Below are positions 1,930 through 60,100 of a stretch of 64,000 nt of DNA, one piece after another. The number at the start of each line of letters is the position of its first letter. Position 1 is the stretch's first letter. The stretch is from a virus. The position numbers and the translations under genes are program-made. The notes below the pieces were generated by a model, which saw only the letters and a program-made list of their open reading frames with translations, did not search any database and was not told the DNA's origin. The stretch covers positions 1 through 64,000 of the IMG/VR virus record IMGVR_UViG_3300035126_000842, one strand, 5' to 3'.

Positions 1930-2193
1930 ATGATTAGTGTCTCTGTAGTTTATAAAAATCCAGAAGATAAAGAAAAAAACCACGCTTTTTCCTACAATAA
2001 TCTATCTCAATTAAAGCAAGAGATAACAGATCTATTATATATAACAGGATACAAGTTTGAATCTAACTTTAAACTCAAACTACCCGATGAAGATAATATA
2101 TTTGTAAAGTACGATACAGGAGAAGCAACAATAGAAATGAAATGGATTAACAATCGTATTTATCTAGATACCGATACTTCTTTTGTATTGTAA
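1930..2193 (+). CDS. hypothetical protein
   Basis: 87-aa ORF. Confidence 0.65.
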   Translation: MISVSVVYKNPEDKEKNHAFSYNNLSQLKQEITDLLYITGYKFESNFKLKLPDEDNIFVKYDTGEATIEMKWINNRIYLDTDTSFVL

Positions 2194-2219: not shown

Positions 2220-2340
2220 AGTCAGGTGGCGAAATTGGTATACGCTACGGGGCAACGAAAAAACAGAATGTGGAGGTTATAATAATAAAGTTGGAAGGTC
2301 TCCACTCCCTACATTACAGGTTCGAATCCTGTCCTGACTA
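2220..2340 (+). ncRNA. tRNA-like element 1 with oversized anticodon-arm insert
   Basis: Acceptor AGTCAGG/CCTGACT, D-arm GCG-AAATTGGTATA-CGC, T-arm ACAGG-TTCGAAT-CCTGT; long insert containing a GTGGAG/CTCCAC stem; 121 nt; followed by CTA, not CCA. Confidence 0.8.
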
Positions 2341-2355
2341 CTAAACAATCAAAAT

Positions 2356-2520
2356 ATGAATTGCGAAAGACCTGTAAAAAACGAAGAGACGGGCAAATGG
2401 GAAGTCTGGGACTTTGCATACTTGGAGAACGGAGAGAGACACTACGAGCTTCACGAGTTTTGGGAATACAAAGATGCTATTGAGTTTTGGAAGTCAAGAA
2501 ACCCAAAATTTTATAAATAA
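2356..2520 (+). CDS. small hypothetical protein (54 aa, MNCERPVKNEETGKWEVWDF...)
   Basis: Hand-translated ATG..TAA ORF that fills the gap between tRNA-like elements 1 and 2. Confidence 0.6.
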   Translation: MNCERPVKNEETGKWEVWDFAYLENGERHYELHEFWEYKDAIEFWKSRNPKFYK

Positions 2521-2526
2521 TAAAAT

Positions 2527-2624
2527 AGTCAGGTAGTGGAGTGGTACCACGCGGTAAAACAATTTGCAGAATTGCATTTGAATTGAAGTAACCGAGACGC
2601 AGGTTCGAATCCTTGTCCTGACTG
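2527..2624 (+). ncRNA. tRNA-like element 2 with extended anticodon arm
   Basis: Same acceptor stem; D-arm GTG-GAGTGGTAC-CAC; CGGT/ACCG stem enclosing CAATT/AATTG and TGCA-gaat-TGCA; 4-nt variable loop; T-loop TTCGAAT; 98 nt. Confidence 0.8.
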
Positions 2625-2629
2625 CTATA

Positions 2630-2663
2630 GGTGAATTCTACTACCTAGAAGTGTAGAAACAAT
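2630..2663 (+). ncRNA. putative pseudoknotted hairpin motif, copy 2
   Basis: GGTGAA-TTCTAC-TACCTAGAAGT-GTAGAA; covaries with 467-500. Confidence 0.5.
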
Positions 2664-2681
2664 TTTTATTACTATAAAGTT

Positions 2682-2900
2682 ATGAGAAAACATAATGGAG
2701 TAAATCATTCAATGACAATGCCTGCAAGGGCAAGACGCAAAAGAGTAATCGAGCGTTTAGAAAATCAGTTACAATCTGGATTTAAAAGAGTATCTATTAA
2801 AGATGATTCTGGTAAAAGTACAGATAGTAGAGTAAAACTCACGGATTCTGAAGTTACAAGAATTCAAAAAGAAATTGAGGTTTTAAAAACCCGCTGCTAA
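2682..2900 (+). CDS. small basic hypothetical protein
   Basis: 72-aa ORF. Confidence 0.65.
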   Translation: MRKHNGVNHSMTMPARARRKRVIERLENQLQSGFKRVSIKDDSGKSTDSRVKLTDSEVTRIQKEIEVLKTRC

Positions 2901-2930
2901 TCAGTATTAACACTTTAATTAAAACAAAAA

Positions 2931-3320
2931 ATGAAAAGTATTTTTGCTATTATTGCATTAGCTTTATTAACAAGCTGTGCCACAATTACTTCAAGCATGA
3001 AGCAGGAAGTAACTATCAATGTAAAACCTGACCATGCTAAAGTTTATGTGAATGGGAACAAGGTAGGAGAGGGAAGTTGTACTGCTGAAGTTCCTGTAAA
3101 GAAGCGTAACACTATCATTGTCAAGGCGGAAGGGTATGAGAATGCTCAAATTAAAACACAAAGACAGATTCGTCCAGGGTATTTGATTGGCAATATCGGG
3201 ATGTGTTTTGTGCCTTATGTAAACTTCTTTGGCTTACCGAGTTTGATTGTTGATGCGTGTACGGGTGCGTGGTATAAGCAAGAAGAAGATGAGTATTATT
3301 TTGACTTAGATAAAAAGTAA
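2931..3320 (+). CDS. PEGA-domain lipoprotein
   Basis: Signal peptide with lipobox LTSC; PEGA-like 'INVKPDHAKVYVNG...IIVKAEGYE'. Confidence 0.75.
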   Translation: MKSIFAIIALALLTSCATITSSMKQEVTINVKPDHAKVYVNGNKVGEGSCTAEVPVKKRNTIIVKAEGYENAQIKTQRQIRPGYLIGNIGMCFVPYVNFFGLPSLIVDACTGAWYKQEEDEYYFDLDKK

Positions 3321-3339
3321 TATCAATCATTCATCAGGT

Positions 3340-3434
3340 GGATGGTTGAGAAATGTGTTGTTCCCTTGAGAAAGGAATTTAATACCATATAGGGCAAATG
3401 GAGGAAACCCTACAACACGGAGGACTTCTCATCC
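3340..3434 (+). ncRNA. putative multi-stem structured RNA immediately upstream of tRNA-like element 3
   Basis: Nested stems TGAGAA/TTCTCA, GTGTTGT/ACAACAC, CCTT-GAGA-AAGG (GNRA loop) and AGGG/CCCT. Confidence 0.5.
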
Positions 3435-3440
3435 TCAAAT

Positions 3441-3543
3441 AGTCAGGTGGCGAATTGGTTAACGCAAAGGGTTAGTTTATATTGGTAACAAATCAAAATA
3501 TAAATGAGTCTCTCATACGCAGGTTCGAATCCTGTCCTGACTA
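3441..3543 (+). ncRNA. tRNA-like element 3 with extended anticodon arm
   Basis: Same acceptor stem; D-arm GCG-AATTGGTTAA-CGC; insert with TTTATATT/AATATAAA stem; variable loop CATAC; T-arm GCAGG-TTCGAAT-CCTGT; 103 nt. Confidence 0.8.
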
Positions 3544-3672
3544 CTAATTTAATTTAACCATTTAAAAAGTAAAAATGAAAACTGCTCAAAATTTATTTCT
3601 ATTAGGTTTAATTTCTAAAAGAAAGAATAGAAAACTTAATATAATTAGAGTAAATAACGAAGAAGGAGATTA

Positions 3673-4149
3673 ATGAATAATCAAGAACTTATTATTAAAT
3701 TACGACAGTTTGTAACAGAACTAGAACCTGTTATTGCAAACTGGGATTTATTTAAACCATCTTATCAATACGATTGCTACACAAAATATTATGATAAATT
3801 ATTTGATCGTAAGTGTACAATCGACGACTTGTACTCAAAAAATAGATGTTCAGAACTTATACTAATAAAACATTCTATAATTTATATTCTTTATAATAAT
3901 TTAGGTGCGTGTATAGCAACTAAAGATTTAGCAGATGTTTTTGATCTTAAAGATCATACAACTATTTTACATGCTATAAAAAAAATAGAAAATTTTATTG
4001 ATATTAAAGATAAAGAGTGTAAAAAATGTTTAGATTTGCTTTATAACTGTATTGAAGAAAAACAGTTGTTTAGTTCTGAAAATCTGTTATACAAAGATAT
4101 TATAGCAGCGTGTTTATTAAAAAAGAAAAAAAATAAAAGAATTATATGA
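3673..4149 (+). CDS. protein with DnaA C-terminal (domain IV)-like HTH
   Basis: DLADVFDLKDHTTILHAIKKIE matches the DnaA domain IV signature 'F..RDHTTVLHA..KI'. Confidence 0.7.
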   Translation: MNNQELIIKLRQFVTELEPVIANWDLFKPSYQYDCYTKYYDKLFDRKCTIDDLYSKNRCSELILIKHSIIYILYNNLGACIATKDLADVFDLKDHTTILHAIKKIENFIDIKDKECKKCLDLLYNCIEEKQLFSSENLLYKDIIAACLLKKKKNKRII

Positions 4150-5868: not shown

Positions 5869-5889
5869 GAGTAGGGTTGTTGATGTCGT

Positions 5890-5916
5890 AAAAAGGGAGC
5901 TAATAACTCCCTTTTT
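5890..5916 (+). terminator. intrinsic terminator
   Basis: AAAAGGGAG-ctaataa-CTCCCTTTTT. Confidence 0.8.
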
Positions 5917-6154
5917 ATATTGTTTTATTTGTTTAATTTTAATTTTTATTTAGTATGAACACTTTGCCCTCAAAAAAATCATTGAAGAAAAGAAGCAAAC
6001 CTTTTAAAGAAGCTTACGGTAAACCTCTAGAAACAAGAAGAATGAGGTTTATGGTTATTAAAAAGGATGCTGAAGGTAAATCTTACGAAGGTTCTGAAAC
6101 CTTATTAGTAAGAGTTTACTAAAAACATTTATCTCAGGATAATGTGCGTAGAAT

Positions 6155-14100: not shown

Positions 14101-14646
14101 ATGAAAAATTTACACATTATCCCAACTGAAGAAATTTGGAAAGATATAATCGGATATGAAGGTATTTATCAAGTATCTAATTTTGGAAATGTGAAAAGTT
14201 TGGGTAATAATTTTTCAAGAAAAGAAAGATTTCTTAAACTATCTTCTCAAAGTAAAGGATATTTAACAGTTGTTTTACAAAAAAATGCAACAAGAAAAAT
14301 GGTACTTGTTCATAGACTTGTAGCAGAACATTTTATAGATAATACTGAATCTAAACCTCAAGTAAATCATATTAATGGAGATAAAACTGACAATAGTATT
14401 GAAAACCTAGAGTGGGTTTCTCATAGAGAAAATTTAGACCACGCTATAAAAAACAATTTAACTTTAAAAGGAGAAGAAAATCGTAATTCTAAATTAAAAG
14501 ATGTAGATGTTATTAAAATACATTCTTTATTACAAAAAGGAATTACAACAAAAGAATTGTCAGAAAGTTACAATGTATCTTATAGCACAATAGATGGTAT
14601 TAGAACAAATATATATTGGAAACATTTAAACTTACCTAAAATATGA
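14101..14646 (+). CDS. NUMOD4-HNH homing endonuclease
   Basis: EIWKDIIGYEGIYQVSNFG (NUMOD4); VHRLVA...VNHINGDKTDN...NLEW (HNH); C-terminal HTH. Confidence 0.9.
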   Translation: MKNLHIIPTEEIWKDIIGYEGIYQVSNFGNVKSLGNNFSRKERFLKLSSQSKGYLTVVLQKNATRKMVLVHRLVAEHFIDNTESKPQVNHINGDKTDNSIENLEWVSHRENLDHAIKNNLTLKGEENRNSKLKDVDVIKIHSLLQKGITTKELSESYNVSYSTIDGIRTNIYWKHLNLPKI

Positions 14647-42165: not shown

Positions 42166-45100
42166 TTACAGGCGGCTAAATGATTCTTTGGTTTGTATGT
42201 CGAGAATAGCATCTGTTGTTGTTCCTGAGAAACCTAAAAACTTCAACCAAAGATTTGCAATTTTAGCAGAATCTTTCTGTTGCCATTCATACGGACCTAC
42301 TCTTTTATCATAAAATCCTCTCTCATCACCAACTGCTGCTAATATACCATAAGTAAGTGATTTTGAAATAAGATCAATACTAGGTTGTAATGTTGCCATT
42401 TTAACTTGGAATAGGCTAGTGTATGTTTGCAAACCCATACCTGGTAGTGGCATAAAAGTATTATGCTCTTGTTGGAAACCTAAAATAAGTTGTAACGCTT
42501 TATTAAAAGCATAACCATCTAAATGAAACTCACCTTCATCTGCTGTTCCAAAAAATGGTAGAGGTGCTGATTTCGCTCTTAATTTTTTGTAGCGGTCTTC
42601 GTCATCAGGATCATACTCAAATAGCATACGACTAGTTAACCATAACACCAGTGCTATCATTACATCAGTAAATGTTTTAATTAAATTCCTCTTTTCATAA
42701 GGAGTTAAAGTACTCCAGTAAATGTTGAAGTTAGGATTTTTAGTAAAAATATTTTTGAAGTAATTGGCTATAAATCTTAGTGATGTTATATAGTAACCTT
42801 CTTGAACATCACCTGTTGCATAATTAATTCTTGGTGAAAACGACCATGCATCAAAAAATGATTTTTCTTTATTGTATTTAAAACTAGAACCAAAACGATT
42901 CATAAACATCATGTAAAAGAACCGTTTCATACTAAGAACCTGGTTATAAATAACAAACTTATCACCGTAGCTTTTACCTAAAGCTGATGAATCACCATTA
43001 GTTAATGCAATTTGTTGATGAATTCTATTTTTTATGAGATTGAATTTTACACCACCAACGTCATAAGTTTGATCTATACCACTTCTAAGAGAAAGTTTAC
43101 CATCTTTAATTTCCCATGCTTCCATGTAAGGTATTTCTGACTCCACTCCATTTGTAACAATCTTAACCTTTTCATAGTACATTCTTTGTGCCCATAATTT
43201 AATAGCACCTTGTGTTTCTAACCAAGTTCTGGGAGCTAATACAAATGATTGCCAATCTGCAGCATCTTGAGTATATGATCTATTAAAACTTCTACCTATT
43301 CTTTGTTTTGAACTACCTTGTTTTGGGTCAAAAGCATCTACAAGCATTTGCTCGGCAGTATATGTACCGCCTTGATAAGCATGTGTAGTTTGACCAAACA
43401 TATATTTTATTGCCCATGCTTCACCCTGAGAATAACTTTTCTTATCAACACCATCTTGTGCAGCAAGGTTAATTATGTTTTGCATACCCATTTGCACTCG
43501 GTTTCTTATAGCTGATTCTGGAGTAGAAAGAAATACAGTAGAGGTAAATCTAGTTAAAGAATTTACAGCCTTAAGGAGCATATGATTGTCAGATAGAAAA
43601 CCTCTTGTATTTTCACCTTCAAATATAGTCCTATTAAAAGATTCTACCATTTGTCTTCTAATACTAGCTTCTTTTTTATTTTTAGCACCTGCGAAAATTG
43701 TCAGGTTGTTTTCAAGAAACGCGTATTTATTAATCTTGTCTACTTCTTTCAATACGTTTTCATCATCAGCTAGTACTTTTTCTAAACCTTTTGCAATAGG
43801 CATTATTTTGACTTTCTCTTTTACCTCTTCTATACTGTAGAAATATCTAAACATAGAATAAGGTATATCCATGCTTACTTTATCTAATTCAATAGGATAT
43901 TTACCTGCAACCGGTATCTTAGATAATTCATCACCAAAAAAGTCTAGGGATACTAGTTTAAGTCTAGTACGTTTTTCTTCTTCTGTTTCAGCACTTGTTA
44001 TATTAGAAAATCCTTCTTCTGCTTCATCACCTGTTTTACCATACAGTTTAGCTTTAACGCTAGATAAGAATGATGAAAATCCAGATCTTGTATGACCAGA
44101 TAAAGTTTTTTGAGCTGCTTCAAAGTTGCTTTCAAAAAAAGAAGGTACTTGAAAATTAAGTCTTCCTAATTTAGAAGTTTCTTTTTGCTGTTTAAAAGAC
44201 ATGCTTTTTATATACTCAAGTAAATCCCACAGAGGTCTATCTGTTCTTTTTAAATTATAGTAATCTGTATTTACATACTTAGTTAAGTCTGTCTCAGAAT
44301 TCATAAAAGATTGATATTCTGAGTCAGATAAGTCAGGAATATTTGTAAGAAATTCTTCAGTTATTTTTTTACCTTTTGATTCAGCATATAATACTTCTAT
44401 TGGTTTTGGCAACCATTCTCCAAAAGCATTTATTGTAACACCCATTATACGAGGAGTTTTCAATTCCTCTTTAATTGTTACTTTATGATAGTTTCTAGAA
44501 GGAAAGTTTGTACGGATTAATTCGCCTTTACTGTTTCTAAATTCAATCATGTCCTTATAATTATCATTTATTTTTTGCTCCATATGGACTCCATTTGGAA
44601 CATAAGCAAATGATACTTTACCTCCTTCTGATACCTCATATTTTGTATGATGATCATCTATAAACTTTTTGAAGTCTTTGTTTTTTAGCGCTTTGATAAA
44701 ATTGTTGTCAGTACTAATAAAAGCTATGTCTACATACTTGCCGTTATTAATATTCTGGATAGCTTCTTTTCTATATATTTCATAAGCAGCTGTTTTACCT
44801 TTATATTGTATATCATAGAATTTACTCCACTCACCATTTATATATTCTTGCTCTGCATTAGAAGGTTGTTTACTTCTGAATTCTTTAAGAGCTTCACTAA
44901 TGTTAATGTATTTTTCATACAAAGCAAAGTTAGTTTGCTTAAGAGATTTATTTGCAGGAGGTTCTTCTGATTCATATTCAAAATCTCCAGCATATAATTT
45001 TCTTACTGTGTGCAATAACTCTATATCTTTTTCTGAAATATTTTTAGGTAAACCTCTTTCAATGTCAATTTCAATGTTTATTCTAAATAATTCATTTTCT

Positions 45101-48100
45101 ACAGCATTTACTTTAGCGATTGCTTCAGGTGTCATCAAGTCAATTAGCATCATTTTAGATCTAGGATCTGAATATAAAATGCGTAATTCACTTAATGTTT
45201 TACCTAGTTCTGACCGTCTTGCATTTAGTTCTTTTAATTTACTTGTAAAACTGGCAGATTTATTATTTGTATTTTCTATGTTACTAAATATCTGCTGTAC
45301 TAATGCAAAATATTCATCTTTTCTTTTGATATAAGTATTTTCAGCTAACCACTGACTAAATTCAGGACTATTAGCACCTAGCAGTTGTTCGTTTAGTTTA
45401 TAAGCTTCAGCAAACTTTTCTATAGTTTCTTCTCTTTCTATTTCTAAAGTGTTTTCAGTAATAGTATAGAAGTTTTTATACTCTTTAGCATCTTCGTAAT
45501 CTTGCCCTTCTTTAAGTTCACCGTTTCTTTTTCTTAAACTAGTTACTTCATTTAACAATATATATTGTTGTTCTATATCTTCTTGATACTGAAGTATATT
45601 GTCTTTTGATTCGGGTGAATCTATTCCTTGTTCAACTTTTATAGCGAGTTGTAATGTAGAAATCTTATCTTCTATTGCAAGACGTTTGATAAATATTCTT
45701 TTACCCCAGTCTGTAGCAAGCATTTGTTTTCTAGTACTATGCCCTGATAGTACAGAACCAAAGAAATATTTATCCTTAAGTTCTGATATTTCTCTAGCTT
45801 TTTCAACTTCTAAATTTAAGTCTTTATTTCTACGGGCTTGCTCTTGTTCAGCTTCTAATCTTCTTAAATCATTAGTTGCTTTAGATACTAAAGTTGAATG
45901 TAAGAATTCATAATAGTCGCTTTTTTCTTCTAATTCTATTTCTCTACCTTCATCACCTTCTTCTACAGACTTAACTAATCGGGTACCTTTAGTAATAATC
46001 TGCCGGTATTTGTTAGAATAGTTATACTTAGTTATTCCTGCTTTAGATTGTAACTCATTAAGTTTTTCAAAGTAATTAGTATAAACACCAACCATGTTAG
46101 CTTCTACATTATTGTATGCATTTTTCACAATACTACCTAATGTTCCATATACAGGGTCTGAAGATTGTATAGCGGATAAAACATATCCCTCAAGAAAATT
46201 AGAGTCACCTGCTTTACCGCTTAATAAATCTTCCATCTTCTGTTCAGAAATCAGAAGTTGGTCGCGTGTTTTAATATAGTATGCTTTTCTACTTTCTAAC
46301 AGAGGGTTAGAACCCTTAGCAGCAATTTCCTCTTCAATTTTATTGATGGCATCATTATACAATGAAGTTATACTGTCATTAACAGTAGATACTGTCATAT
46401 ATATAACATCTTTTATGTTTTTAAACCGCTGATCTTTTAACTGCTTTTGTCCGTTTTGTGCATTGACTATTGTTTCATTAAGAGATTGTGCTATAGAATT
46501 TTTAGGATCTATGCTAACAATAATTTTATTTAAACTTCTAGCAAGTGTTTCAAAAGATTTTAACATGCTTTCAAGTTTGTCTATTAAAACTAGATTTTGT
46601 CTAAAATCATCGCTAGATGTTTTATCAATCAATACTGTTTTATCAGGTCCCGCTAAATTATTAACAAGAGCTTGCATTTCTAACATACTGCTCATTAAAC
46701 GATATGCTTTTTGGGCATCGTTCTTTTCTATGTTGAGTGCTTCCCTTATTTCATCTGCCAGCTCTAACTGTTCTTCTATAACATATTTTCTATCTAGAGC
46801 AATTTCCTGTTTAATCTTTTCGAGATTACCTGTTTCAGAATTAAATATGATTGCTGCCAAATCAGGATCAATCATACTGTTATTAGTAAAGTATTCAGCA
46901 TTAGAATTTACTAATGATGTTAATACTTTTAAAAAGTCTTCAAGATTTGATAGACCAAACTTTACATTCTCCGGGTTTTTTGCAGCTTCTTTATTGTAGA
47001 CAGTCGCATCTGATATTAACTTTGCTGTTTTTTCTATTTCCTCTTGTACTTTAGTTAAATACTCTACATAATCTTGTGTAGTAAAGAGCTCTGCGTTAAG
47101 GTTGAACTCGCTCATTTTTAGCATCTCAGCTAAATCTGATAACGAAGTATAGGGAGATAGTTTACTTATGTTAATTTTAGAACCAAATATTTTTCTGAAT
47201 AACTGCTTAAGAGCGTAAAAAATTTTGTTTACAAAGTTATACAGAATACCATCCTCTTTGTTTTCTAGAAGTCTTTCTCGTGCTACGTTTTCAAGAACTC
47301 TTGTAATGTATTCTCGTTTGTAAGCGTTTGTATCAAAAGAGTATGCATTGGGATCATTGTCGATTTCGTTTTGCAATCTCTTTTCTACACCAAGTTGATA
47401 TGTAGCATCTACAGATTTACTTTCTTCAAAAAGATTATCAAAAAGACCTGGGTTTTCTTCTTCGATAGATTTAACCAAAGGGTGTAGGAATTCGTGTATT
47501 AATGTTTCAGGTGTTACATTACCTGATATTATGTAAACGGTACCTTTGTAGAAGAAAGACACACCCTGTCCTGTATAAGGGTTTGCTGCAGATTTAGTTA
47601 TTTCTCTAGCGTCAGCATCAGATACTACTTGATAATTAATAGTAGGAAAAGCACGTTGTAAAGTATCTAACACAGAAGTTAAAAAGTTATTAGCTTGCGC
47701 TGAAACTAGCTTATCAATATCAGAAGTTTTCATATTCTCATATTTGAGTATAGCTTCTTCTTCTAAACTATTAGCATATCCCGGAGCAATATTATTAATA
47801 GACTTTCTTTCTTGTGCTGTAAAATCAGAAGCTACAAGAACTTTCATCATATCAGGACTAATATTTATTCCTATTGAATAAACATTATTAGATAGCTGAA
47901 CATTTGCTACTAAAGAATTCCATTTTTTATTAATAGAGTCAGCAATCTTTTCAGCTATTTTTTTATTATCAGTATTACTAGGTCCTGATATCTGATTAGT
48001 ACTTCCCCATTTTCTTATAGTATTTTGAAGGGTAACATCATCTGTATATTCTACAGCAGCTACACCATAACCATACTGTAACATTTGTTTTGTTACATTA

Positions 48101-48129
48101 TCTTTAAAATCATTAATAGTACAATTCAT
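42166..48129 (-). CDS. giant virion-ejected protein with zincin-like (HEFLH) domain
   Basis: 1987 aa, mostly helical; TLIHEFLHP; last gene of the RNAP operon. Confidence 0.75.
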   Translation of the reverse strand: MNCTINDFKDNVTKQMLQYGYGVAAVEYTDDVTLQNTIRKWGSTNQISGPSNTDNKKIAEKIADSINKKWNSLVANVQLSNNVYSIGINISPDMMKVLVASDFTAQERKSINNIAPGYANSLEEEAILKYENMKTSDIDKLVSAQANNFLTSVLDTLQRAFPTINYQVVSDADAREITKSAANPYTGQGVSFFYKGTVYIISGNVTPETLIHEFLHPLVKSIEEENPGLFDNLFEESKSVDATYQLGVEKRLQNEIDNDPNAYSFDTNAYKREYITRVLENVARERLLENKEDGILYNFVNKIFYALKQLFRKIFGSKINISKLSPYTSLSDLAEMLKMSEFNLNAELFTTQDYVEYLTKVQEEIEKTAKLISDATVYNKEAAKNPENVKFGLSNLEDFLKVLTSLVNSNAEYFTNNSMIDPDLAAIIFNSETGNLEKIKQEIALDRKYVIEEQLELADEIREALNIEKNDAQKAYRLMSSMLEMQALVNNLAGPDKTVLIDKTSSDDFRQNLVLIDKLESMLKSFETLARSLNKIIVSIDPKNSIAQSLNETIVNAQNGQKQLKDQRFKNIKDVIYMTVSTVNDSITSLYNDAINKIEEEIAAKGSNPLLESRKAYYIKTRDQLLISEQKMEDLLSGKAGDSNFLEGYVLSAIQSSDPVYGTLGSIVKNAYNNVEANMVGVYTNYFEKLNELQSKAGITKYNYSNKYRQIITKGTRLVKSVEEGDEGREIELEEKSDYYEFLHSTLVSKATNDLRRLEAEQEQARRNKDLNLEVEKAREISELKDKYFFGSVLSGHSTRKQMLATDWGKRIFIKRLAIEDKISTLQLAIKVEQGIDSPESKDNILQYQEDIEQQYILLNEVTSLRKRNGELKEGQDYEDAKEYKNFYTITENTLEIEREETIEKFAEAYKLNEQLLGANSPEFSQWLAENTYIKRKDEYFALVQQIFSNIENTNNKSASFTSKLKELNARRSELGKTLSELRILYSDPRSKMMLIDLMTPEAIAKVNAVENELFRINIEIDIERGLPKNISEKDIELLHTVRKLYAGDFEYESEEPPANKSLKQTNFALYEKYINISEALKEFRSKQPSNAEQEYINGEWSKFYDIQYKGKTAAYEIYRKEAIQNINNGKYVDIAFISTDNNFIKALKNKDFKKFIDDHHTKYEVSEGGKVSFAYVPNGVHMEQKINDNYKDMIEFRNSKGELIRTNFPSRNYHKVTIKEELKTPRIMGVTINAFGEWLPKPIEVLYAESKGKKITEEFLTNIPDLSDSEYQSFMNSETDLTKYVNTDYYNLKRTDRPLWDLLEYIKSMSFKQQKETSKLGRLNFQVPSFFESNFEAAQKTLSGHTRSGFSSFLSSVKAKLYGKTGDEAEEGFSNITSAETEEEKRTRLKLVSLDFFGDELSKIPVAGKYPIELDKVSMDIPYSMFRYFYSIEEVKEKVKIMPIAKGLEKVLADDENVLKEVDKINKYAFLENNLTIFAGAKNKKEASIRRQMVESFNRTIFEGENTRGFLSDNHMLLKAVNSLTRFTSTVFLSTPESAIRNRVQMGMQNIINLAAQDGVDKKSYSQGEAWAIKYMFGQTTHAYQGGTYTAEQMLVDAFDPKQGSSKQRIGRSFNRSYTQDAADWQSFVLAPRTWLETQGAIKLWAQRMYYEKVKIVTNGVESEIPYMEAWEIKDGKLSLRSGIDQTYDVGGVKFNLIKNRIHQQIALTNGDSSALGKSYGDKFVIYNQVLSMKRFFYMMFMNRFGSSFKYNKEKSFFDAWSFSPRINYATGDVQEGYYITSLRFIANYFKNIFTKNPNFNIYWSTLTPYEKRNLIKTFTDVMIALVLWLTSRMLFEYDPDDEDRYKKLRAKSAPLPFFGTADEGEFHLDGYAFNKALQLILGFQQEHNTFMPLPGMGLQTYTSLFQVKMATLQPSIDLISKSLTYGILAAVGDERGFYDKRVGPYEWQQKDSAKIANLWLKFLGFSGTTTDAILDIQTKESFSRL

Positions 48130-51175: not shown

Positions 51176-54100
51176 TTAACAATTTCTTATAATTTCTAAA
51201 ACTTTATTCAATTCATTCTCGTTTATGTTTGCTTTGTCAATAGTTTCTCTGACTACAACTTTAGCTACAAGATTAGGAGGTAAAAATTGCTTATTTATTT
51301 TACCAAATTTTTGATACAAAACAAAGGCGTTTATGTATAATAATCCTGTAAGTATCTTTTCTATTTCAGGATCTCGATTAGTTATAGAATCATATACAAG
51401 AACATTTTTTATTCTTGCTTCATCTTGAATGCTTTTAGTTTCTATAATATTATTACCAAATACATAACGAATGTTAAAATTAACATCTTTTGGTATCTGA
51501 TCATATTTCTCAGAGATACTATCGTAGAATTTTTTATAGAGCTCGTTTTTAACAGTTGCAAAATTTTCACCTTTAGCTACTCTACCTTGTATTGTATTAT
51601 GTACAGACTTAGCTAAACTATAATCAGGAATATAAACTTCTAATTCTGTTTTTGATTCTAGAGTTTGAGTAGTAGGTTTTGCAGTTACAGTAGGTGTAGC
51701 AGATACGTTTTGATATGCCTGTTTTAAAGCATTCATAAACATATTTTTTGGATTTTTACTAGACCATCTACCAGTTCCCATAGTATGAGTAGATTTATCT
51801 AAAAACGCTAAACCTCCTCTTTCTGTAATTTGTGTAACTAGATTAGGATATTGTTTTAACTTATCAGTTATTAATCCTATCATAAGTTTCATATCATAAG
51901 CATCTCCTTCTGTTCCTTTAGGAATGCCTTTTGACATTGCATTGTTTGATTTATACCAAGCTTCTACTGATTGACCATAAGCATCAGCATAAGTTTTTAG
52001 TCCTTTATCTATTGCCCACTTAACCGCTAAATCATTACTATCTAATTTAACAGAGTCAGGGTTTTTTAAAGATTTATCTGTAGGGATTATATCAAATTTA
52101 GATTTACCATTTGTAGCAAAATGTACATTAGTTAAATCATTTCCTAATCCTGTTTGCTTAGAATTAATTTCAATACCTTCACTTACAGTAGGTGTAGTAG
52201 GTTGATTCCAATTATACTCATTTATAAGATAATCTAAAGCTGTAGCATGAGTAGCATATCCTTTTTCTTGATAATATATAATAGGTCTATTTTTCAGTTT
52301 ACCGTTTTTAATATCATCAATAATAGCTTGCCTATATTCAGGTGTAGCTTCAGTAACACCCATGTTATCTCCAGTAATCATCCAGTGTATAAATCGTTTA
52401 GTAGATTTTATACCTTGTTCATCGCGGGTACCTGTTTCAGCTTGCCAGTCAAAAGGATTACCTATTGTTAATGCAGGTTCTCCACTAAGCCTACCTTTAT
52501 AGTTTTGCAAGAAAGTATTTGTTTTTTTACCTCTATATGCAATTATAAGGTTATCTCCAAACCAAGCTCTTGCTTCTGGTACCACTTCACTCCAAAATGT
52601 TTTTGCACTATACTTTACATCAGATAAATCTCCTTGACCTGCTATCTCTACATTAGTAGATTTTGTTTTTTTATCTTTATTAATCTTATCATATATAGTT
52701 CTAGCAGTTTCGGGTTGAGTACTTACCGCAGTTTGTGTAGTATCTGTAGTAGAAGTAGAAACAGATTTTGCAACAAACAGAGTAGATTTAGTAGTCTTAA
52801 TATTTCTGTAAGGAACTACATCTAAAGTGTTTTTAGTTTCGCTTTCTTGTTCAGGTACAACGTATATATAACCAGGTTTTTTATGATTATTAGCAGCAAC
52901 TACATCTGATTCTATAGATTTAAGTAGTTTTTCTAACTCTGGTTTACTCATAGCTACAGTTGCTAAGTTTTTCAACAGACTTTCATTTACAAACAACTGT
53001 TGTACTTTACTAGAAGTAGAGCTAGTATTATTTTGCATAACTGAAAATAATCCTACCCCAGTTAAAATATCACTTAGGACCATGTTATCAAAACTATTGG
53101 ATAAAGTTCTTTTAGTAGGATCAATAAGTGTTTGTATTTGTTTTCTATAGTATTCAAGATTGTCTTTAATACCTACGATTTCAATTTGTAAAGTATCGGA
53201 GTTATCTTTGATTTTAGTATTTAGATTATTTAATACAGGGTATGCTTGTAACAAAACGTTAGCATAAGCAACTTTAATTTGATTAATAAAGTAACCTATG
53301 TTTGTTGAAGTTTGAGATATACTTTTAGTACTTAATACTGATACAGGCATAGAACTAATAGTAGCCATATCTCGTAAGAACAACTGATAAGCATACTGCG
53401 ATTTACTCAAGTTAGGTTTTTTACTTTTTATATCTTTATAGGTAGCATCTTCTTCTATATTTTTATAAACCTGTTTGTAATAAGTAGAATTTTTAAAGTC
53501 GTTAAAAGGATATTTGTTTTTTGCTATCTCATACTCAATAAGATATTTTTCTAGTCTTTTAGTACCTTTAAGAATTCTATAATCTGGCTTAACTATATTG
53601 TAAGCAACATAATAGTCAGATGAATCTAAATCTGAACTAGTACCTGCTGCAAAAAGAGCAATATTTAGTCTATTAACATAAAGAGATTTTTCTACAACAT
53701 TGTTTGCTTCATCAGTAACTTCAATAACTTTTACTGCAGATGTAAGTAATATATTAAAATCGTTTTTAAGTACAGATGTTTGTACAGCATTATTATCTGC
53801 ATCAAACTCAGTACTTGCTATTACGTTAAAACCTTTATATACATCGTTCTTATAACGAGAATTTAAAAGTTTTTGAAGCATTACAGATCTAATGATGTTA
53901 GAATAAAGTTTTATTGCAGTTTTAGTGTCTTTAAAAGGCATCTGTGATTCATAGATTTTATCTTGATAGTGGTTTCTATAGATAAAATCAACAACTTGTA
54001 TCATAGATGGAGACAAGGATTCTAATAAAGTTTTAGGTAGACTTCCGGTATTAATATAAAAAGATGATCTTACACTATTTCTTTTTATAGAAAGCAATGA

Positions 54101-57100
54101 TTCTTTTGTAAACTCAGGCATTGTAGAGTATAGTTCTTGAAACTTTCTATCAAAAAGAATAAAGTCAAGTATAGATGCAAATCTTTGACGGTCAGGGCGT
54201 AAAGCAAATGAAAGTTTATTAATAGTTGAATCAAACATTTGGTTTAAAGCTAGATAATGTATTAACCCTATTGCCTGATTTAAAACATTTGTATTGTAAT
54301 CAGAGTTACCTATGTAATGGGCAGCATTAAAATCTAGAGATTCATATACTAATTTAGACTCTTCAGCAAATACGTTATTAAGTTTTACTATACTTGTCTT
54401 TGTAAACTTTTGCCCTAGAATAGTATTAACTTTATTTTTGATTTCACTGCTGTAGTTTGATTGTTCTACTAATTTTCTGAATTCATTAGGTTGTATAATA
54501 CTTTTAAATTTATCTACTGTAGATGGAGATTTAGTATTATTTAATATTCTACCAAAAAATGGTAACAAAGGGGTTTTGGCTATTTCTGTGTATCTAACAT
54601 ACAGGTTTACCATAGGATTTAGTAGGAAAATAGATACTGGTTCTTCGTTAACACCTGCTCCCGTTAAACCTAATTGAAAAGATGCTGTATTTTTTCTAAT
54701 ACCCAAACGTAACAACCAAGGGTCTTTTTCTACGTCAACGGAAGCTTGAATCTTTTGCCCTGTGTAATCACCTTTGTCTTTACCATTTAAGTTAGTAAGA
54801 GCAGAATAATCTAAAGCATCTATTTCTACAGTAACGTTATCTGAATCTACTATTACATCAATTTCATGTTTAGTAGTTTTATAGTTGAAAGGTATTTTTA
54901 CTACTGTTACCGAGCCGTTTTTACCTATTATAGCATTAGGCATTTGTAGATTTGACTCAGCCATTTCATTAAGCATTGATGAAAATACGGCAATAATACC
55001 TAGACTTTTTTTACCGGCACTATTATAATCAAGCTTAAGTAATGATTGAAAAGGGTCTGTAATGTAACTATAGTTAGTTGCTATAGGAAACTCTGATAGC
55101 GTTATGTTATCATTACGTTTAGATATTTCTTTTAAGTTTTCATCTGTAGTAGGAAGAATGAGATACGGCAACAGTTCTTCAATAAGAAGCAATGAAGCTA
55201 CATTTTTGTTTATTCTATTGCCTAAAGCACCTGCTATGTTTTTGTAGTAGTAAACTTCTTTCTGATACTCTTCTGCTACTTTAAGCATTTGCTTTTCAGC
55301 TTCGGTTAAAGTATCTTCTTTAGTTTCTAATTCAGATTTATTTGTAAATATATCAGCGATTTTCTGATTGATATCTTCAATTTTTTTCTCAATAGACTCT
55401 AAAGTTTCATCACCTTCTAGCGTTAACTCATCATATTCAGCAAGAGCTTCTTGATTGTTATTAACTACTTTACGATATTGTTTTGCTTTATTAGCACTGG
55501 CTAATTCAGCTACATTTTGCATTCCAGTTCTTTTTAAGTCTGTAGTTACAGCACTTAATATTTTTCTTAATAGTTTATAGTAAGCAGCAGATCTTTCTTC
55601 TTCTACTTTGAGTTTACTATTAAGTTCTTTTATTTTAGCTTTGCTTTCATTGTAGCTTAGTGAATACTTGAGTATATTACCTTCTTCGTCAAAGCTAGGA
55701 TAAAGAAGTGTCAGTTTATCAACGTCAAAGTCACCACCTGATTTAGCTACTATTTCTGAAGGGAGTACAATTATATTACTTGCAATAGGGTCTAAAAATT
55801 CTTCAATTTCTAAAACCTCCATAGAAGGGTGAGCATGCACCGGAATTCTATCACCTGTAATGATAAACTTGTCCATATGCAATTTCTTCCATTCAGGTTT
55901 TGCCATCATCTCATTTAGTCGCGGTATTGTACCAATAGAATTACCGTCAGTGTGAGTAAGATTTAAAAGTTTGTAAAAATCACCCTGCATTGAGATTTTA
56001 ACTTGCGCAGGAAGAATTGTACCATCTTTTGCTTTTCTATATGATTTTAATTTGTTGCTGTAACGGACTTTGTCTTTAAGTACTCTTTTAAGTAGAGGGT
56101 CTGTCTCTACAAATTCCCAACCGGTATTTGCAACCTGAATCAAAGGTTCACCAGGAAACTTTTGCTGAATAATATTTTTCTCAATAATGTTTGCTATAAT
56201 GTTATCTAATATTACAGCTAAACCAGAACCTAAATAATCGTATGCAAAAGCTCCATCAATAACAGCGATCATATCTGTTTCATCTTCTGTTATATAACCT
56301 TTTTTCTTTAATAGTTCTTTGATGTAGCCTGCAAATTTTTCCATCCCTTTTTTATCAGGGTTTTTTAAATCTATTTGCAATGTAGCAGATAGTTTGTCCT
56401 TAAACATCTGTGTAGCATCTGCAATAGATTGTTTATACTCTTCTACTAAAGGTCCATACTTTTTAAATTCAGATTTAAGTTTACCATTTTCAAAGAACAA
56501 ATCTAATATCTTAGTTCTTTTCTGACTAGATACCAAAGACTTACCTTTAAATACAGGAGCAATATAAAGCTGGTCTTTAAAAAATGTAGTATTTATAAAG
56601 TTTTTGACAAAAGGTTTATCTGTTAAGTTACCTTCGTTGTCATAGAAAAGGTTAGATGTTTTATCAAAGAAGAAACTATTTTTAGAACCAGATACATAAG
56701 TTAATAATCCTATCTTTTCATTAAGCATTTTATTGTAGATAAGATTAAGATACCTTTGCTTTTGTTCTTCCCCTATTTTAGGATTAAGAACAGGTGGTAT
56801 TAATGGTACTATGTTAAACTTAAGCGTAAACGCTTGTATGTTTTTGTAAACGTTATCTTTTTTATACTTGGCAGGTCCCGCAAACTGATACTTTAATGAA
56901 GGAAAGAATTCACTAATATTCAAAGGTAATGTTTCTCCTCGCATTATTTTGTTATAATACAACTCTTTAGTATTGTCCCAATTACCTGAACTTAATGATA
57001 GCATTCTATAAGTAGGCAGTAAGACTACACCTTGCGCATCTGCTTCTTTCATATCAGAATACGGTTTTGTTCTTTTTTCTGCTACTTTAACATCTTCTAT

Positions 57101-60100
57101 TATACTTTTAATTGCTTCCTCGTATTCATTATAATTTTCTGATGTTACTTTAACATCTTCCAAAATAGCAACAGGTAGTTCTTGCATATTTATAATTTCA
57201 CTGCTGCTGTCACTAAAATCAAAAATGCTTTTTATTAAGTTTAAATAATCAGGATCTGAATAAACTGGATTTCCTCCTGAACCCCAAAGAGCATTTCTTT
57301 TACTAAATTCATCTTTGTCTAAGTTATAATTTGCTAAATCACCATAAATAAATATATTAGATTCAATATTAAATAAAGTCATGTTCATGTAAGAATGCTT
57401 GTATAGTCTTTGACCATCAGCTTCTACTTCAATACCAAGAGTTTTATTTATTGAAGCATCTATATTTGTTAAAACGGTAGGATCAATTTTTGCAAAACTA
57501 TTAATACCTGCTGTTATTCTAGAGTCGTGTTCTACTTTTATAGCGGCTTTAATAGCATCTGCTTGTGTACCTTGCAGTTTTTGTTTTACTGATGTAATAA
57601 CGTTTTCAACATTATCATTTCTTTTTGAATCATAAACTTCTTTTATTAATGATTCTACAAGGTTTGTAGTTTCAGAATCGATATAATCAAAAAACAAATA
57701 TTTTTTACCAAACTTACTAAACATTTCTACATTGTCATGCTCTCCTTGTTTTGTTTGATATACACGGATAGCTTCCGCTATAAAATAGTTATACAGTTGA
57801 TTGTAGAATACATTTTCAGCTTGAACATCTGCTGTAGCGTAACTTATAAAAGGTACCTTATCAATACTCATATAGTGTTGAGTACTTTTACCTGCATGCT
57901 GATACATTCTATAAGCATTATGAATACGAAGATTAATCATTGCTTCAATATTAGCAGTGAATACATTGTTGTCGTTTTCTGTAATACCTGTATTAGTATC
58001 GTTAGCAATACCAGACGCTTTAAACAATCTAAACTTTTTACCCTGTTGGTACACTAACTTATTAAGTAATGAGTCTGCCCAAAACGGATTTTCGTTAGGA
58101 GATTGATTGATACTTTCTTTTAGATTTTCATCGTTGTATAATTGTACATATCTCATCATGGATGACTGCAACGAAAATTCATTTTCGATATCACCGCTAG
58201 GATTAGTGTACATGTTATCGTTAGTAGTAATCTCAATCTGATTAGCAGCAGCAAATATCTTCTCTACTAAAGTTAATTGCTTTAAGTCTTTTATAGTAGG
58301 ATCTCCCTTTTTAAGCAAATTAACAATATTATCGACACTAGATAATTTGTTTCTATTATTGAACAGAACCATGTTTAATGCATTTAATCCATCAATAATT
58401 GTAGAATCTTTTAACATATCTTTTATTAAAGTATCAGGATATTCAATACTACTGTTTAGGATACCTAATAATTTCAGATAGTTAACTATTTTATATATGT
58501 TGTCTTGGTATGTAAATACAACCGTGCTTTTATACTGTGAAGATGTAGGGTCGTACAGCTTTTTATTTTCAGGGTGCGCAAAAAACTTTGCAGCATTAAA
58601 CTTTAATTCAGAACCTACTTGTTCTAAACCGTATCTATTTTGTTCTTCCACAGATAGTTTTGAAACAAAGTCTGTGTATTCTATTTCTCTCTTATTCCAA
58701 AAACTAATAAACTCTGTATTGCCTATATATGATTCTAAAATATATTGTTTCTTTTTAGAGTCATACGATACATTTGCTATAATAGGAAGTACTTTTTCTC
58801 TAGATAAACTTTTTAATAATGAGTTAAATGTAAAGAAGTGTTCTTTTACGTGCTCATAAAATGCAGGGTATGCTTTGGCTTTTTCTTCTATAACATTCTC
58901 TGCATTTTGTATATTTAGCTGTTGCCATTTTTCTAGAGTGTTACCTCCTATTATTCCATATACACTTGCATAAAATAACTTATCTGTTATTGAACTACCA
59001 TTTTGCGCATAAGCTTTAATAATTTCAGGTATGCTTAAAGGATCTAATCTACCAACTAATCCTGGTGTAGATATTAACTTAGTAATTGCAATGTTTGCAT
59101 TATCTAAGGTTAAAGGTAAACCCGCAGAATCTCTTTCTACATAATGAGAACCTAATACAATATCACCGTTTCCTGCAACACTATATTTGTTTTTAGAAAA
59201 CAACTCGTAAAATTCTCCTTTAGTAAGAATAGATTCAGCACCGGAAAGCATATTTACTTTATAGAAAAGGTCTCCTACTTTTTTAATACCTTCTGTTAGC
59301 GCATCGTTTATATACAAAGTATTATCCTTCAGCACTTTTATCTTAGGCATTTTTGTAAACATGAACTTTAAGTAAGGGGAAAAGTCATTATGTACCGAAG
59401 TGCTATTGTTACCTTTATCAGAATACTGACCATCATCTTTAGAAAGAAAATCTTCATCTTCATCTTGATAGATTTCATTGATGAATTCGTTCTCTTCTAT
59501 ATAATACTTAATAATACCTTGGTTTTCTGTTCTGCTTTTTAATTTTGTTACATCACCTAAATTTTGCAGAGCAATTCCAAAAAGCTTTACTGTTGACTCA
59601 TATGATTTTTTTAAGTCTTCGTTAGTAGTTTGCTCTACTAAGGATTTAAAAAGATTATATCTACTTTGCAGTCCTCGTGATATAAGCTGATAAACTGATT
59701 CTATGTTATCTACTTTAAATAGAAGTCTAACACTACCTAATATTTTATCTTGAGCACCTGCTTGCATTAGCATTGGTGTTATACCGGCACTAAATATAAT
59801 AGAGTCAATAGTCTTTTGTAGTAAAAGCGTTTCTTCACTAGTAAACTTATATCTAGTTTTTTTATCACCAACACCTACTATTGTTTTTTGCAAGATATTA
59901 GTTGAACCTTGATTGATATCATATCTGTAGGCTTCAAGTTTTTTAATATCTCCTGTGTATAAAGTATTAAAAATTTCTCGTATAGCAGGGTTATCAAAGG
60001 CATTTATATTATTATCTAAAGCAGTAGTTTTACTAAATAGAGAATCAAGAAGTTTTTTGATTGCTTTAAAAATTGCTTTTATTGCTTTAGTAACTACAGA

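Follow-up and report, generated by a model that had tools for sequence, protein, structure and literature searches.

The stretch of DNA analysed here, the window, comprises 64,000 nucleotides (nt) of an uncultured lake phage, positions 1 to 64,000 of the IMG/VR record IMGVR_UViG_3300035126_000842, whose total length is 122,313 bp. Close to its start three tRNA-shaped RNA elements lie between small genes on the + strand. A preliminary description made from the sequence alone had placed them at 2220–2340, 2527–2624 and 3441–3543, with a common acceptor stem, GG-containing D arms, a common T loop and, in place of the anticodon loop, oversized inserts that differ from one element to the next. All of these features were borne out on the + strand. 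Our results indicate that elements 1–3 are real, do not decode and belong to a phage family of wide occurrence, the tRNA-Leu-type shells, each consisting of a constant tRNA-like frame with a variable insert. The family is described in no paper that we found by keyword or sequence-string search. The elements and their parts are the following:

2220..2340, + strand: element 1, a tRNA-Leu-type shell of 121 nt; A73 at 2340
2220–2226/2333–2339: acceptor stem of element 1; its D arm is 2229–2245, insert 2247–2311, variable loop 2312–2315 and T arm 2316–2332
2247..2311, + strand: insert of element 1; basal GGG(G)/CCC(U) helix, 17-nt A-rich 5' bulge, 7-bp GUGGAGG/UCUCCAC helix, 22-nt loop
2527..2624, + strand: element 2, a shell of 98 nt; insert 2552–2594, T arm 2599–2616, G73 at 2624
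3441..3543, + strand: element 3, a shell of 103 nt; insert 3467–3514, A73 at 3543
3467–3514, + strand: insert of element 3; 4-bp base, 8-bp AU helix, 13-nt loop

The acceptor stem of each element is AGTCAGG/CCTGACT, with T (U8) and a purine after AGTCAGG, the D arm contains GG, and the T loop is TTCGAAT. The acceptor pair 3:70 is U3:A70. Variable loops are 4 nt long (CATT, AGAC and ATAC in elements 1, 2 and 3), which agrees with the 4–5 nt given earlier for elements 2 and 3 and extends to element 1. Discriminator nucleotides are A, G and A, and CTA instead of CCA follows each of them, as had been noticed; the sequence after the stem is ACTAA in elements 1 and 3 and GCTAT in element 2. U-1 is present in all three. 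Element 2 has a class-I-like D arm (GTGG/CCAC) and a T stem whose 3' strand is bulged by 1 nt (GCAGG/CCTTGT). Positions 27–43 are taken up by unrelated irregular hairpins of 65, 43 and 48 nt that sit on a 3–4-bp basal helix, so that the self-pairing inserts of the preliminary description are found in each element.

A canonical anticodon arm (5-bp stem, 7-nt loop, U33, purine 37) is absent at positions 27–43 of elements 1–3. ARAGORN in default mode reports 0 tRNA genes in the window and in the whole 122,313-bp record, where undetermined or pseudo calls had been expected. With the Rfam tRNA model (RF00005, gathering threshold 29 bits) element 3 scores 46.5 bits and element 2 27.2 bits, element 1 is unreported even at E <= 10, and the rest of the 122-kb genome gives no match to any Rfam model. 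Elements 1–3 are the only tRNA-like genes of this phage genome. Of the RF00005 features they keep the 7-bp acceptor stem, the D arm with G18G19 and the T arm with the T-loop consensus, the T stem of element 2 being bulged. Neither the Rfam tmRNA model (RF00023; transfer-messenger RNA) nor that of YrlA/bacterial Y RNA (RF02553) matches elements 1–3. The topology is also the opposite of that of YrlA or Y RNA, in which a loop closes the tRNA-like module and the ends form a Ro-binding stem: the ends of the shell form an acceptor stem.

The exact 22-mer AGGTTCGAATCCTGTCCTGACT, which spans T arm and acceptor, occurs in at least 120 IMG/VR contigs, with up to 7 copies per contig. Among 185,579 prokaryote species, represented by one genome each, it is found in just 18 contigs, all from metagenome-assembled genomes (MAGs) and mostly from Bacteroidota. 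Since it is so rare there, the shell is not a host tRNA; the family is phage-specific. As extracted, the family has 187 distinct sequences of 53–181 nt with near-identical 5' and 3' parts and an insert of 6–146 nt (median 52 nt). Its consensus, to which elements 1–3 conform, consists of the AGTCAGG/CCTGACT acceptor, the T arm (A/G)CAGG-TTCGAAT-CCTGT, a GG D arm and a variable middle. The acceptor sequence is invariant across paralogues that carry unrelated inserts. Some shells of L027, L071, L078 and L107 have, beside the anticodon-side insert, a second large hairpin insert in the D loop, between GGCGGAAT and TGGTAGACGC. A 320-kb phage contig (L151) carries two insert-bearing tRNA-like genes (2392–2515 and 3760–3879) with the acceptors TCCGACA and TGGGCAT and a common GTGTAATGGTAGCA D arm; given these other acceptor stems, further shell sub-families exist.

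A lack of conserved pairing, which the preliminary description had named as an outcome that would speak against it, was not observed at the family level. In an alignment of 76 sequences that includes elements 1–3 (A1), 97% of cells pair, and changes on both sides are found at all 3 D-stem pairs and at 2 T-stem pairs; the T stem of one family member, shell S3, is ACAAG/CTTGT. Because the D and T stems co-vary, the shell fold is under selection as RNA. The covariance model R1, trained on the same 76 sequences, gives 72.2 bits for element 3, 66.2 for element 1 and 50.8 for element 2, all of which belong to its training set, and 13.7 bits for the next best site in the 122-kb genome. On 0.96 Mb of phage DNA fetched via an unrelated gene R1 finds a single weak match of 28 bits. 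The survey that had been suggested thus separates the elements from the genome background and places them in a family of diverse inserts. Regarding the phage itself, the INPHARED phage collection contains no DNA match to it. A 158-aa protein encoded downstream of the elements has no relative in IMG/VR, and a dehydrogenase neighbour used as query retrieves only ~55% identical loci without elements.

The frame is of the leucine type. Its consensus D arm, GGCGGAATTGGTAGACGC, is nearest to that of genuine phage tRNA-Leu of the same loci, with a mean score of 11.0 as compared to at most 8.4 for any other isotype. Position 73 is A in 92% of the family and U48, the base before the T stem, is present in 90%. 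In the flanks U-1 is found in 77% and C74 in 97%, followed by an A/T-rich trailer. The 200 genuine tRNA genes that ARAGORN finds in the same loci (L004–L123) almost always have N73, C74 and an A/T trailer with no encoded CCA, and U-1 in 140 of 200, which suggests a common, possibly unusual, 3'-end maturation signal in the tRNAs of these phage clusters. As the flank signature of the shells equals that of these tRNAs, the shells resemble substrates of the 5' and 3' maturation route of real tRNAs, and ordinary tRNA maturation of the shells is likely, judging by these signals. The processing-signal role considered in the preliminary description thereby gains indirect support from the flanks (U-1, A73, C74, A/T trailer), from the shared strand with the ORFs and from the tight packing. 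The genome encodes no CCA-adding enzyme, and therefore host enzymes would have to complete the CCA. Bacterial leucyl-tRNA synthetase (LeuRS) does not need the anticodon arm for leucylation, while A73, U8-A14, G18-U55 and G19-C56 are critical, and in Aquifex aeolicus an A73G change cuts leucylation 143-fold (PMC2377443). By sequence, these identity nucleotides are present in elements 1 and 3, for which leucylation by LeuRS is possible; element 2 has G73 and should be charged poorly. The proposed role as a decoy for anticodon nucleases was not supported, there being no anticodon loop available to mimic.

The elements had been described as interspersed between small early genes, and they do sit in a same-strand early mini-gene array, in the order ORF87, element 1, ORF54, element 2, ORF72, ORF129, a spacer, element 3, ORF32 and ORF158 (open reading frames, ORFs, are numbered by length in amino acids, aa). 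The 54-aa ORF lies between two elements as reported. The neighbouring features are the following:

1930..2193, + strand: ORF87 (87 aa); its stop is 26 nt upstream of element 1; exact protein in 17 of the contigs read
2356..2520, + strand: ORF54 (54-aa mini-ORF), between elements 1 and 2; 15-nt leader after element 1, 6-nt trailer before element 2; exact protein in 19 of the contigs read
2682–2900, + strand: ORF72 (72 aa), between elements 2 and 3
2931–3320, + strand: ORF129 (129-aa PEGA-domain lipoprotein; PEGA from precomputed Pfam hits), between elements 2 and 3
3321..3440, + strand: structured non-coding spacer of 120 nt, minimum free energy (MFE) z = -2.1; 12-bp hairpin at 3323–3349, then a module at 3352–3440
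3575..3673, + strand: ORF32 (32-aa mini-ORF), 31 nt past element 3; its stop overlaps the start of ORF158
3673–4149, + strand: ORF158 (158 aa, Bac_DnaA_C), downstream of ORF32

The spacer module (~87 nt) abuts element 3 and folds as a three-way junction, with GUGUUGU/ACAACAC as its closing helix and a hairpin next to it on the 3' side. It occurs twice in the related contig L255 (758–846 and 2301–2389, 2 differences), each time between two shells (S6-module-S2 and S11-module-S12), and looks like a non-tRNA RNA cassette that would be released by shell processing. The hairpin at 3323–3349 differs from its counterpart in L227 (1260–1286) by three G-to-A changes in the 3' strand, two of which turn G.U into A-U and one of which gives a C.A mismatch, so pairing is largely kept. 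Another hairpin (GGUGAAUUCUACUACCUAG...) lies at 2630–2658, 5 nt past element 2, and is part of the flank that is shared with shell S3 in L227 and L265.

There is no terminator-like site on the + strand between 1 and 5887, and the hairpin at 5888–5918 is the first past the array. A strong terminator-like structure, it overlaps a 'tRNA-Ile(aat)' that ARAGORN calls at relaxed stringency at 5869–5952 and that is most likely a false positive. Across the family, 1 of 191 elements is located within a long ORF, an ORF stop lies within 9 nt upstream in a quarter of them, and a same-strand ATG lies within 20 nt downstream in a quarter. In many other phages the shells sit in large tRNA clusters beside tmRNA and other RNAs. 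The proteins most often encoded next to shells are DUF932 (17 of 138 loci), terminase (13 of 138) and T5orf172 (9 of 138). DUF932 is not found in the window genome, and a partner protein was rejected as a candidate, since no neighbour family is universal across the 138 loci. Further along the window two giant ORFs lie on the − strand, 42166–48129 (1987 aa, no family found by Pfam) and 51176–62401 (3741 aa). These ORFs, the AT-rich genome and the links to Bacteroidota MAGs hint at a phage of Bacteroidota, crAss-like or otherwise.

A metagenome scan with the 158-aa neighbour and exact-protein look-ups with ORF54 and ORF87 yielded about 20 related contigs, which come from independent samples, and their shells were mapped by R1. 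The gene and shell order of the window recurs in L248, L249 and L253. L228 and L254 carry an extra cassette directly after element 3, made up of a 13-nt leader, the 44-aa ORF44 and a fourth shell of 78 nt, and their homology to the window resumes inside the 3' arm of this fourth shell. ORF44 and shell S3 stand in place of ORF54 and element 2 in L265; S3 is also at the site of element 2 in L227, where homology resumes in the T arm. Four contigs from four samples (L250, L255, L256 and L257) have 7–8 shells in less than 3 kb, alternating with ORFs of 44–54 aa. The only DNA that these four have in common with the window genome is two blocks that are 99–100% identical:

2314..2627, + strand: cassette A; 3' arm of element 1, leader, ORF54 and element 2; 99.0–99.4% identical to L250, L255, L256 and L257
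3352..3547, + strand: cassette B; spacer module and element 3; 99.5% identical over 196 nt in L250 and L255

L257, in which the match reaches the contig end, is 100% identical to 3375–3547 of cassette B. Three contigs have S5 between ORF44 and ORF54, where a fourth has S10, an unrelated shell; depending on the contig, ORF54 is preceded by S0, S5 or S10. Divergence among the variants forms a mosaic of 0–13% per block, and the ORF72–ORF129 blocks behave likewise when compared with L227 and L228. Of the 12 contigs compared, 10 have an identical element 1 and two differ from it at 2 positions each, none in the insert; element 3 is 100% identical in 9 contigs on two contig backgrounds. The insert of element 2 is identical everywhere. 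In L250 and L257 the same 5' arm and insert are joined to a clean CCTGT and A73, and the CCTTGT, G73 and downstream flank of element 2 in the window match the 3' side of S3 (L227/L265). We infer that the T-stem bulge of element 2 may be a crossover scar between two shells. Element 3 is interrupted in L227: AGTCAGGT is followed by a foreign tRNA-like piece with an unpairable 3' strand, by an HNH_3 ORF and by the remnant TTCTGTCCTGACTA, with ~8 nt of the shell left on the 5' side and ~14 nt on the 3' side. This insertion (L227:1378–1970) was seen in one contig only and contains a homing-endonuclease gene (HNH_3, 137 aa, PF13392, E = 8e-11) that has no homology to the HNH gene of the window (14101–14646). 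Relative to the window, L227 also has a 139-aa ORF without a Pfam match (818–1237) inserted between the lipoprotein gene and the spacer RNA.

In natural relatives, the arms of the shells are where homology breaks off and where a cassette may be added, missing or exchanged for another. In the IMG/VR loci, long blocks of high identity have 79 internal ends, of which 19 are located within family shells (1.8% of bases; p = 3e-16, a value inflated by related loci, as the events are not all independent) and 1 within another tRNA-like gene. One syntenic site with ~90% identical flanks holds at least 5 unrelated inserts (L027, L057, L075/L084/L116, L104, L113). What is new here is that the differences between population variants of this phage coincide exactly with the shells, and that the frame marks the joints of mini-gene and insert exchange, even between contigs sharing no other DNA. 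The mobile-repeat role proposed in the preliminary description stands in altered form: the elements do not behave as a transposon, and their constant arms act as recombination joints for cassette exchange.

The inserts vary greatly, 124 of the 150 family inserts being singletons, the three of the window among them; element 1's insert has no relative among the 150. A search with Rfam at E <= 0.1 on 19 element-rich loci returned only tRNA, tmRNA, freshwater-1 and weak noise, with no family in an insert. The inserts of L014 and L048 are three compensatory pairs apart with a conserved loop between, and two paralogous shells of L047 show compensatory changes in their inserts. A ~70-nt insert module present in shells of L085 and L097 is found in L012 without a shell, closed there by a plain helix of 13–15 bp (z = -3.5). 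Some family inserts are clearly selected modules. Of the scaffold role that had been proposed, the family-level part is supported by this shell-less module and by the compensatory stems; the three inserts of the window are invariant in the relatives found. In the 122-kb genome, none of the three inserts has a sense or antisense match longer than shuffled inserts give, and antisense control of the phage's own genes was rejected. Mimicry or targeting of the host by the insert of element 1 was rejected as well, its matches in 401 Bacteroidota genomes being at chance level (the best agrees at 25 of 26 nt and is part of an 894-aa ORF). Purifying selection on the inserts cannot be read from the zero substitutions relative to L228, since whole blocks including ORF54 are identical in the recombination mosaic.

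We consider it somewhat better than an even chance that the elements are stand-alone non-decoding RNA genes on a tRNA-Leu-type frame, whose tRNA-like excision gives RNAs with a variable hairpin and separates the mRNAs of the mini-ORFs, and whose arms serve as exchange joints. Host RNase P would cut at U-1, and the tRNA 3'-end pathway would trim the 3' end of the shell, after which the CCA would be completed. A stable L-shaped RNA would be set free with the variable hairpin as its payload, and the same cuts would split the polycistronic early transcript into single-ORF mRNAs with A-rich leaders of 13–31 nt. At the DNA level the constant 5' and 3' arms of ~25 nt would provide portable homology for general recombination in co-infection, by which mini-ORFs and inserts may be swapped between phages. 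The observations that carry this reading are the architecture, the phage specificity, the covariation, the tRNA-type flanks and the recombination pattern.

Several points weigh on the other side. Processing, stability, CCA addition, charging and payload activity are predictions. The inserts share no motif beyond stem-forming k-mers, are weakly more stable than shuffles (mean z = -0.9) and have no conserved anticodon-stem-like closing helix across the family (2.2 bp as compared to 2.07 bp in shuffles). Being weakly structured, motif-less and usually without a closing helix, many of them could be tolerated filler. The MFE z-scores in the window are modest: the inserts of elements 1 and 3 reach −0.6 and −1.9, the whole elements −1.4 to −2.2. 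Covariation support is lacking for the folds of the three inserts, which have no homologue that has diverged. The discriminator of element 2 is G73 and its T stem is bulged, and element 3 is destroyed by the endonuclease gene in L227, so individual shells are dispensable. To the inflated breakpoint statistic it may be added that metagenome assemblers can join contigs at repeats of ~200 nt; yet every arrangement except the HNH insertion recurs in independent samples.

The shells could be tRNA-type cleavage signals and nothing else, cutting the early transcript into mini-mRNAs as tRNAs do in mitochondria, with neutral filler for inserts and an excised RNA devoid of function. The tight spacing of same-strand ORFs, the tRNA-type flanks, the mostly singleton, weakly structured inserts without a common motif and one 53-nt member without any insert all fit such punctuation. 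We regard it as unlikely, since in many phages the shells lie among genuine tRNAs with no ORF to separate, the median insert is 52 nt long despite compact genomes, insert stems show compensatory changes, and one insert is found outside a shell. It is more improbable still that the acceptor end is what matters, i.e. that the RNAs would be matured and leucylated like tRNA-Leu to act as a dedicated donor of aminoacyl groups or, as a sponge or decoy, to draw off host factors or toxins that attack the 3' ends of tRNAs. Such a mimic could not miscode, as it has no anticodon. The Leu-like frame does keep A73, U8, G18G19, U48 and the T loop, the anticodon arm is unnecessary for leucylation (PMC2377443), and the acceptor stays unchanged across paralogues with unrelated inserts. 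However, element 2 has the G73 that costs Aquifex aeolicus LeuRS 143-fold in leucylation, the genome has no CCA-adding enzyme, the sampled neighbour proteins gave no partner transferase, and the retention and diversification of the inserts would be left without explanation. Decaying tRNA-Leu pseudogenes, or mere recombination scars without function at the RNA level, are very improbable. The chimera-like element 2 with its bulged T stem, the disruption of element 3 in L227 and the precedent of the T4 RNAs RNAC and RNAD, which have no known role (PMC3014915), could be read in that way. Decay should hit all parts alike, yet the arms, the nucleotides of tertiary contacts and the flanks are conserved and the middle varies; in addition, the D and T stems co-vary, and the phage retains three shells yet no real tRNA.

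We give hardly any credence to two other explanations. One takes the elements for true tRNAs whose inserts are introns, removed to leave ordinary decoding tRNAs. ARAGORN in intron mode indeed calls element 1 as Trp(cca) and element 2 as Phe(gaa) at default stringency and element 3 as Ser or Thr at relaxed stringency, and each element has a basal helix of 3–4 bp. The called intron positions (34/35 and 30/31) are non-canonical and shift with the settings, and calls are made for 103 of 165 real family members and for nearly as many (81–100 of 165) when the insert alone is shuffled. We reject the intron reading because the calls persist with shuffled inserts, the frame alone yielding them. Moreover, without their central hairpin elements 2 and 3 are left with loops of 9 nt, the 3-4-3 bulge-helix-bulge motif is missing, the inserts are far below the size of group I introns, and some members have an insert of 6 nt or an additional one in the D loop. 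The view of the preliminary description that the elements are not decoding tRNAs holds, given that there is no 5-bp stem with a 7-nt loop and no default call, and that the intron calls are explained by the frame. The intron-mode calls are somewhat enriched in Leu anticodons, which is compatible with an origin from tRNA-Leu. It is important to note for annotators that intron-mode tRNA finders will label shell elements as tRNAs with arbitrary anticodons. The other explanation makes the shells integron-like attC sites, folded sites at which a site-specific recombinase inserts or excises ORF cassettes. Constant inverted-repeat ends around a variable centre, a total length of 53–181 nt, the alternation with promoterless same-strand mini-ORFs and the combinatorial cassette order are as expected of such sites. 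Integron attC requires a cognate IntI-type tyrosine recombinase and a fixed crossover, whereas the junctions in shells lie at varied points of the arms, as expected of homologous exchange, and no match to the tyrosine recombinase family (PF00589) was found in the 122-kb genome; an attC site would also have no use for the T loop, G18G19 and U-1. In a genome without a tyrosine recombinase, general homologous recombination at the ~25-nt arms is the simplest reading.

The reading as stand-alone RNA genes with exchangeable inserts has partial parallels in known systems. Phage T5, with E. coli as host, encodes RNA1 and RNA2 (AY543070, 30501–30644 and 32959–33083), annotated as 'tRNA-like stable RNA with unknown functions'. 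They resemble the shells in being encoded by a phage, amid tRNA genes and mini-ORFs, and in having an acceptor stem, a T arm and a large insert but no anticodon arm. RNA2 shares the identical T arm GCAGGTTCGAATCCTGT and has a G73-AC trailer, and the T-loop-like hairpin of its insert, CTCGTTCGATTCGAG, is also found in the insert of the family member L089; RNA1 has a Leu-like D arm, CCGGAATTGGTAGACGG. In contrast to the shells, the T5 RNAs have other acceptors (ATTCTAG/CTAGGAT in RNA2) and score only 24 and 15 bits by R1, and shell-bounded cassette shuffling is undescribed for them. RNAC (species 1) and RNAD (species 2) of phage T4 are likewise small stable RNAs, located at the end of a phage tRNA cluster, and RNAC ends in a T arm followed by an acceptor-like 3' strand. 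Expression of RNAC has been confirmed by Northern blot, and both are classed as late RNAs (PMC9697503). Unlike the shells, RNAC and RNAD have imperfect acceptor pairing and no Leu-like D arm (RNAC scores 20 bits by R1), and they are single copies, not a multi-copy frame with exchangeable inserts. Elements 1–3 share the sequence features of phage tRNA-like stable RNAs: they are phage-encoded, with a tRNA-like acceptor and T arm, no anticodon arm and a length in the range of ~100–145 nt.

The behaviour of the shells at the DNA level has its closest analogue in the promoter-terminator stem-loops (PeSLs) of T4-type phages, an analogy of function only, as the motif differs. PeSLs are short conserved regulatory motifs that flank small variable ORFs in hyperplastic regions; through the homology that they offer, gene cassettes are inserted, deleted or replaced between related phages (PMC2839356, PMC4122927). 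The shells, too, are a conserved short motif that flanks variable small ORFs and marks the boundaries of insertions, deletions and replacements among close relatives. PeSLs are promoter and terminator hairpins, however, not tRNA-shaped and without a variable insert, and a stable processed RNA is not expected of them. In the engineered tRNA scaffold used for recombinant RNA in E. coli the anticodon arm is swapped for a foreign structured RNA, and the frame gives processing and stability (PMC3753655). That scaffold is a laboratory design, whereas the shells are natural and multi-copy, with a putative payload function. The tRNA-like domain of tmRNA also has an acceptor and T arm and a large insertion that replaces the anticodon arm, and tmRNA is described in PMC3985003 as matured by RNase P and aminoacylated. 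It differs in its G3:U70 alanine identity, reduced D arm, pseudoknots, tag ORF and length of 260–400 nt; the shells have U3:A70 and a full D arm. As to the arrangement of the array, mitochondrial polycistronic transcripts carry tRNAs between ORFs that are excised by RNase P and RNase Z, freeing the mRNAs. The shells are similarly tRNA-shaped units between ORFs, but punctuating tRNAs of mitochondria also decode, which the phage shells cannot.

We tentatively suggest, as a possibility clearly less probable than the reading above, that the shell is a dual-purpose chassis. It would make any hairpin or mini-ORF self-processing and stable by means of host tRNA enzymes, and its ~25-nt arms would permit an integron-like exchange, independent of a recombinase, between phages that share no other DNA similarity. 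The payloads would then be diversifying, for example as anti-defence or host-takeover RNAs.

The tRNA-like stable RNAs of phages T4 and T5 have been known for decades with no function assigned. The window ties three such RNAs to a very large family, found in environmental phages and built on one constant frame. If the proposed processing is true, these phages own a built-in means to express and trade small RNAs and micro-proteins. This would explain the persistence of tRNA look-alikes that have no anticodon, and it would make the shells a natural counterpart of the engineered tRNA scaffold.

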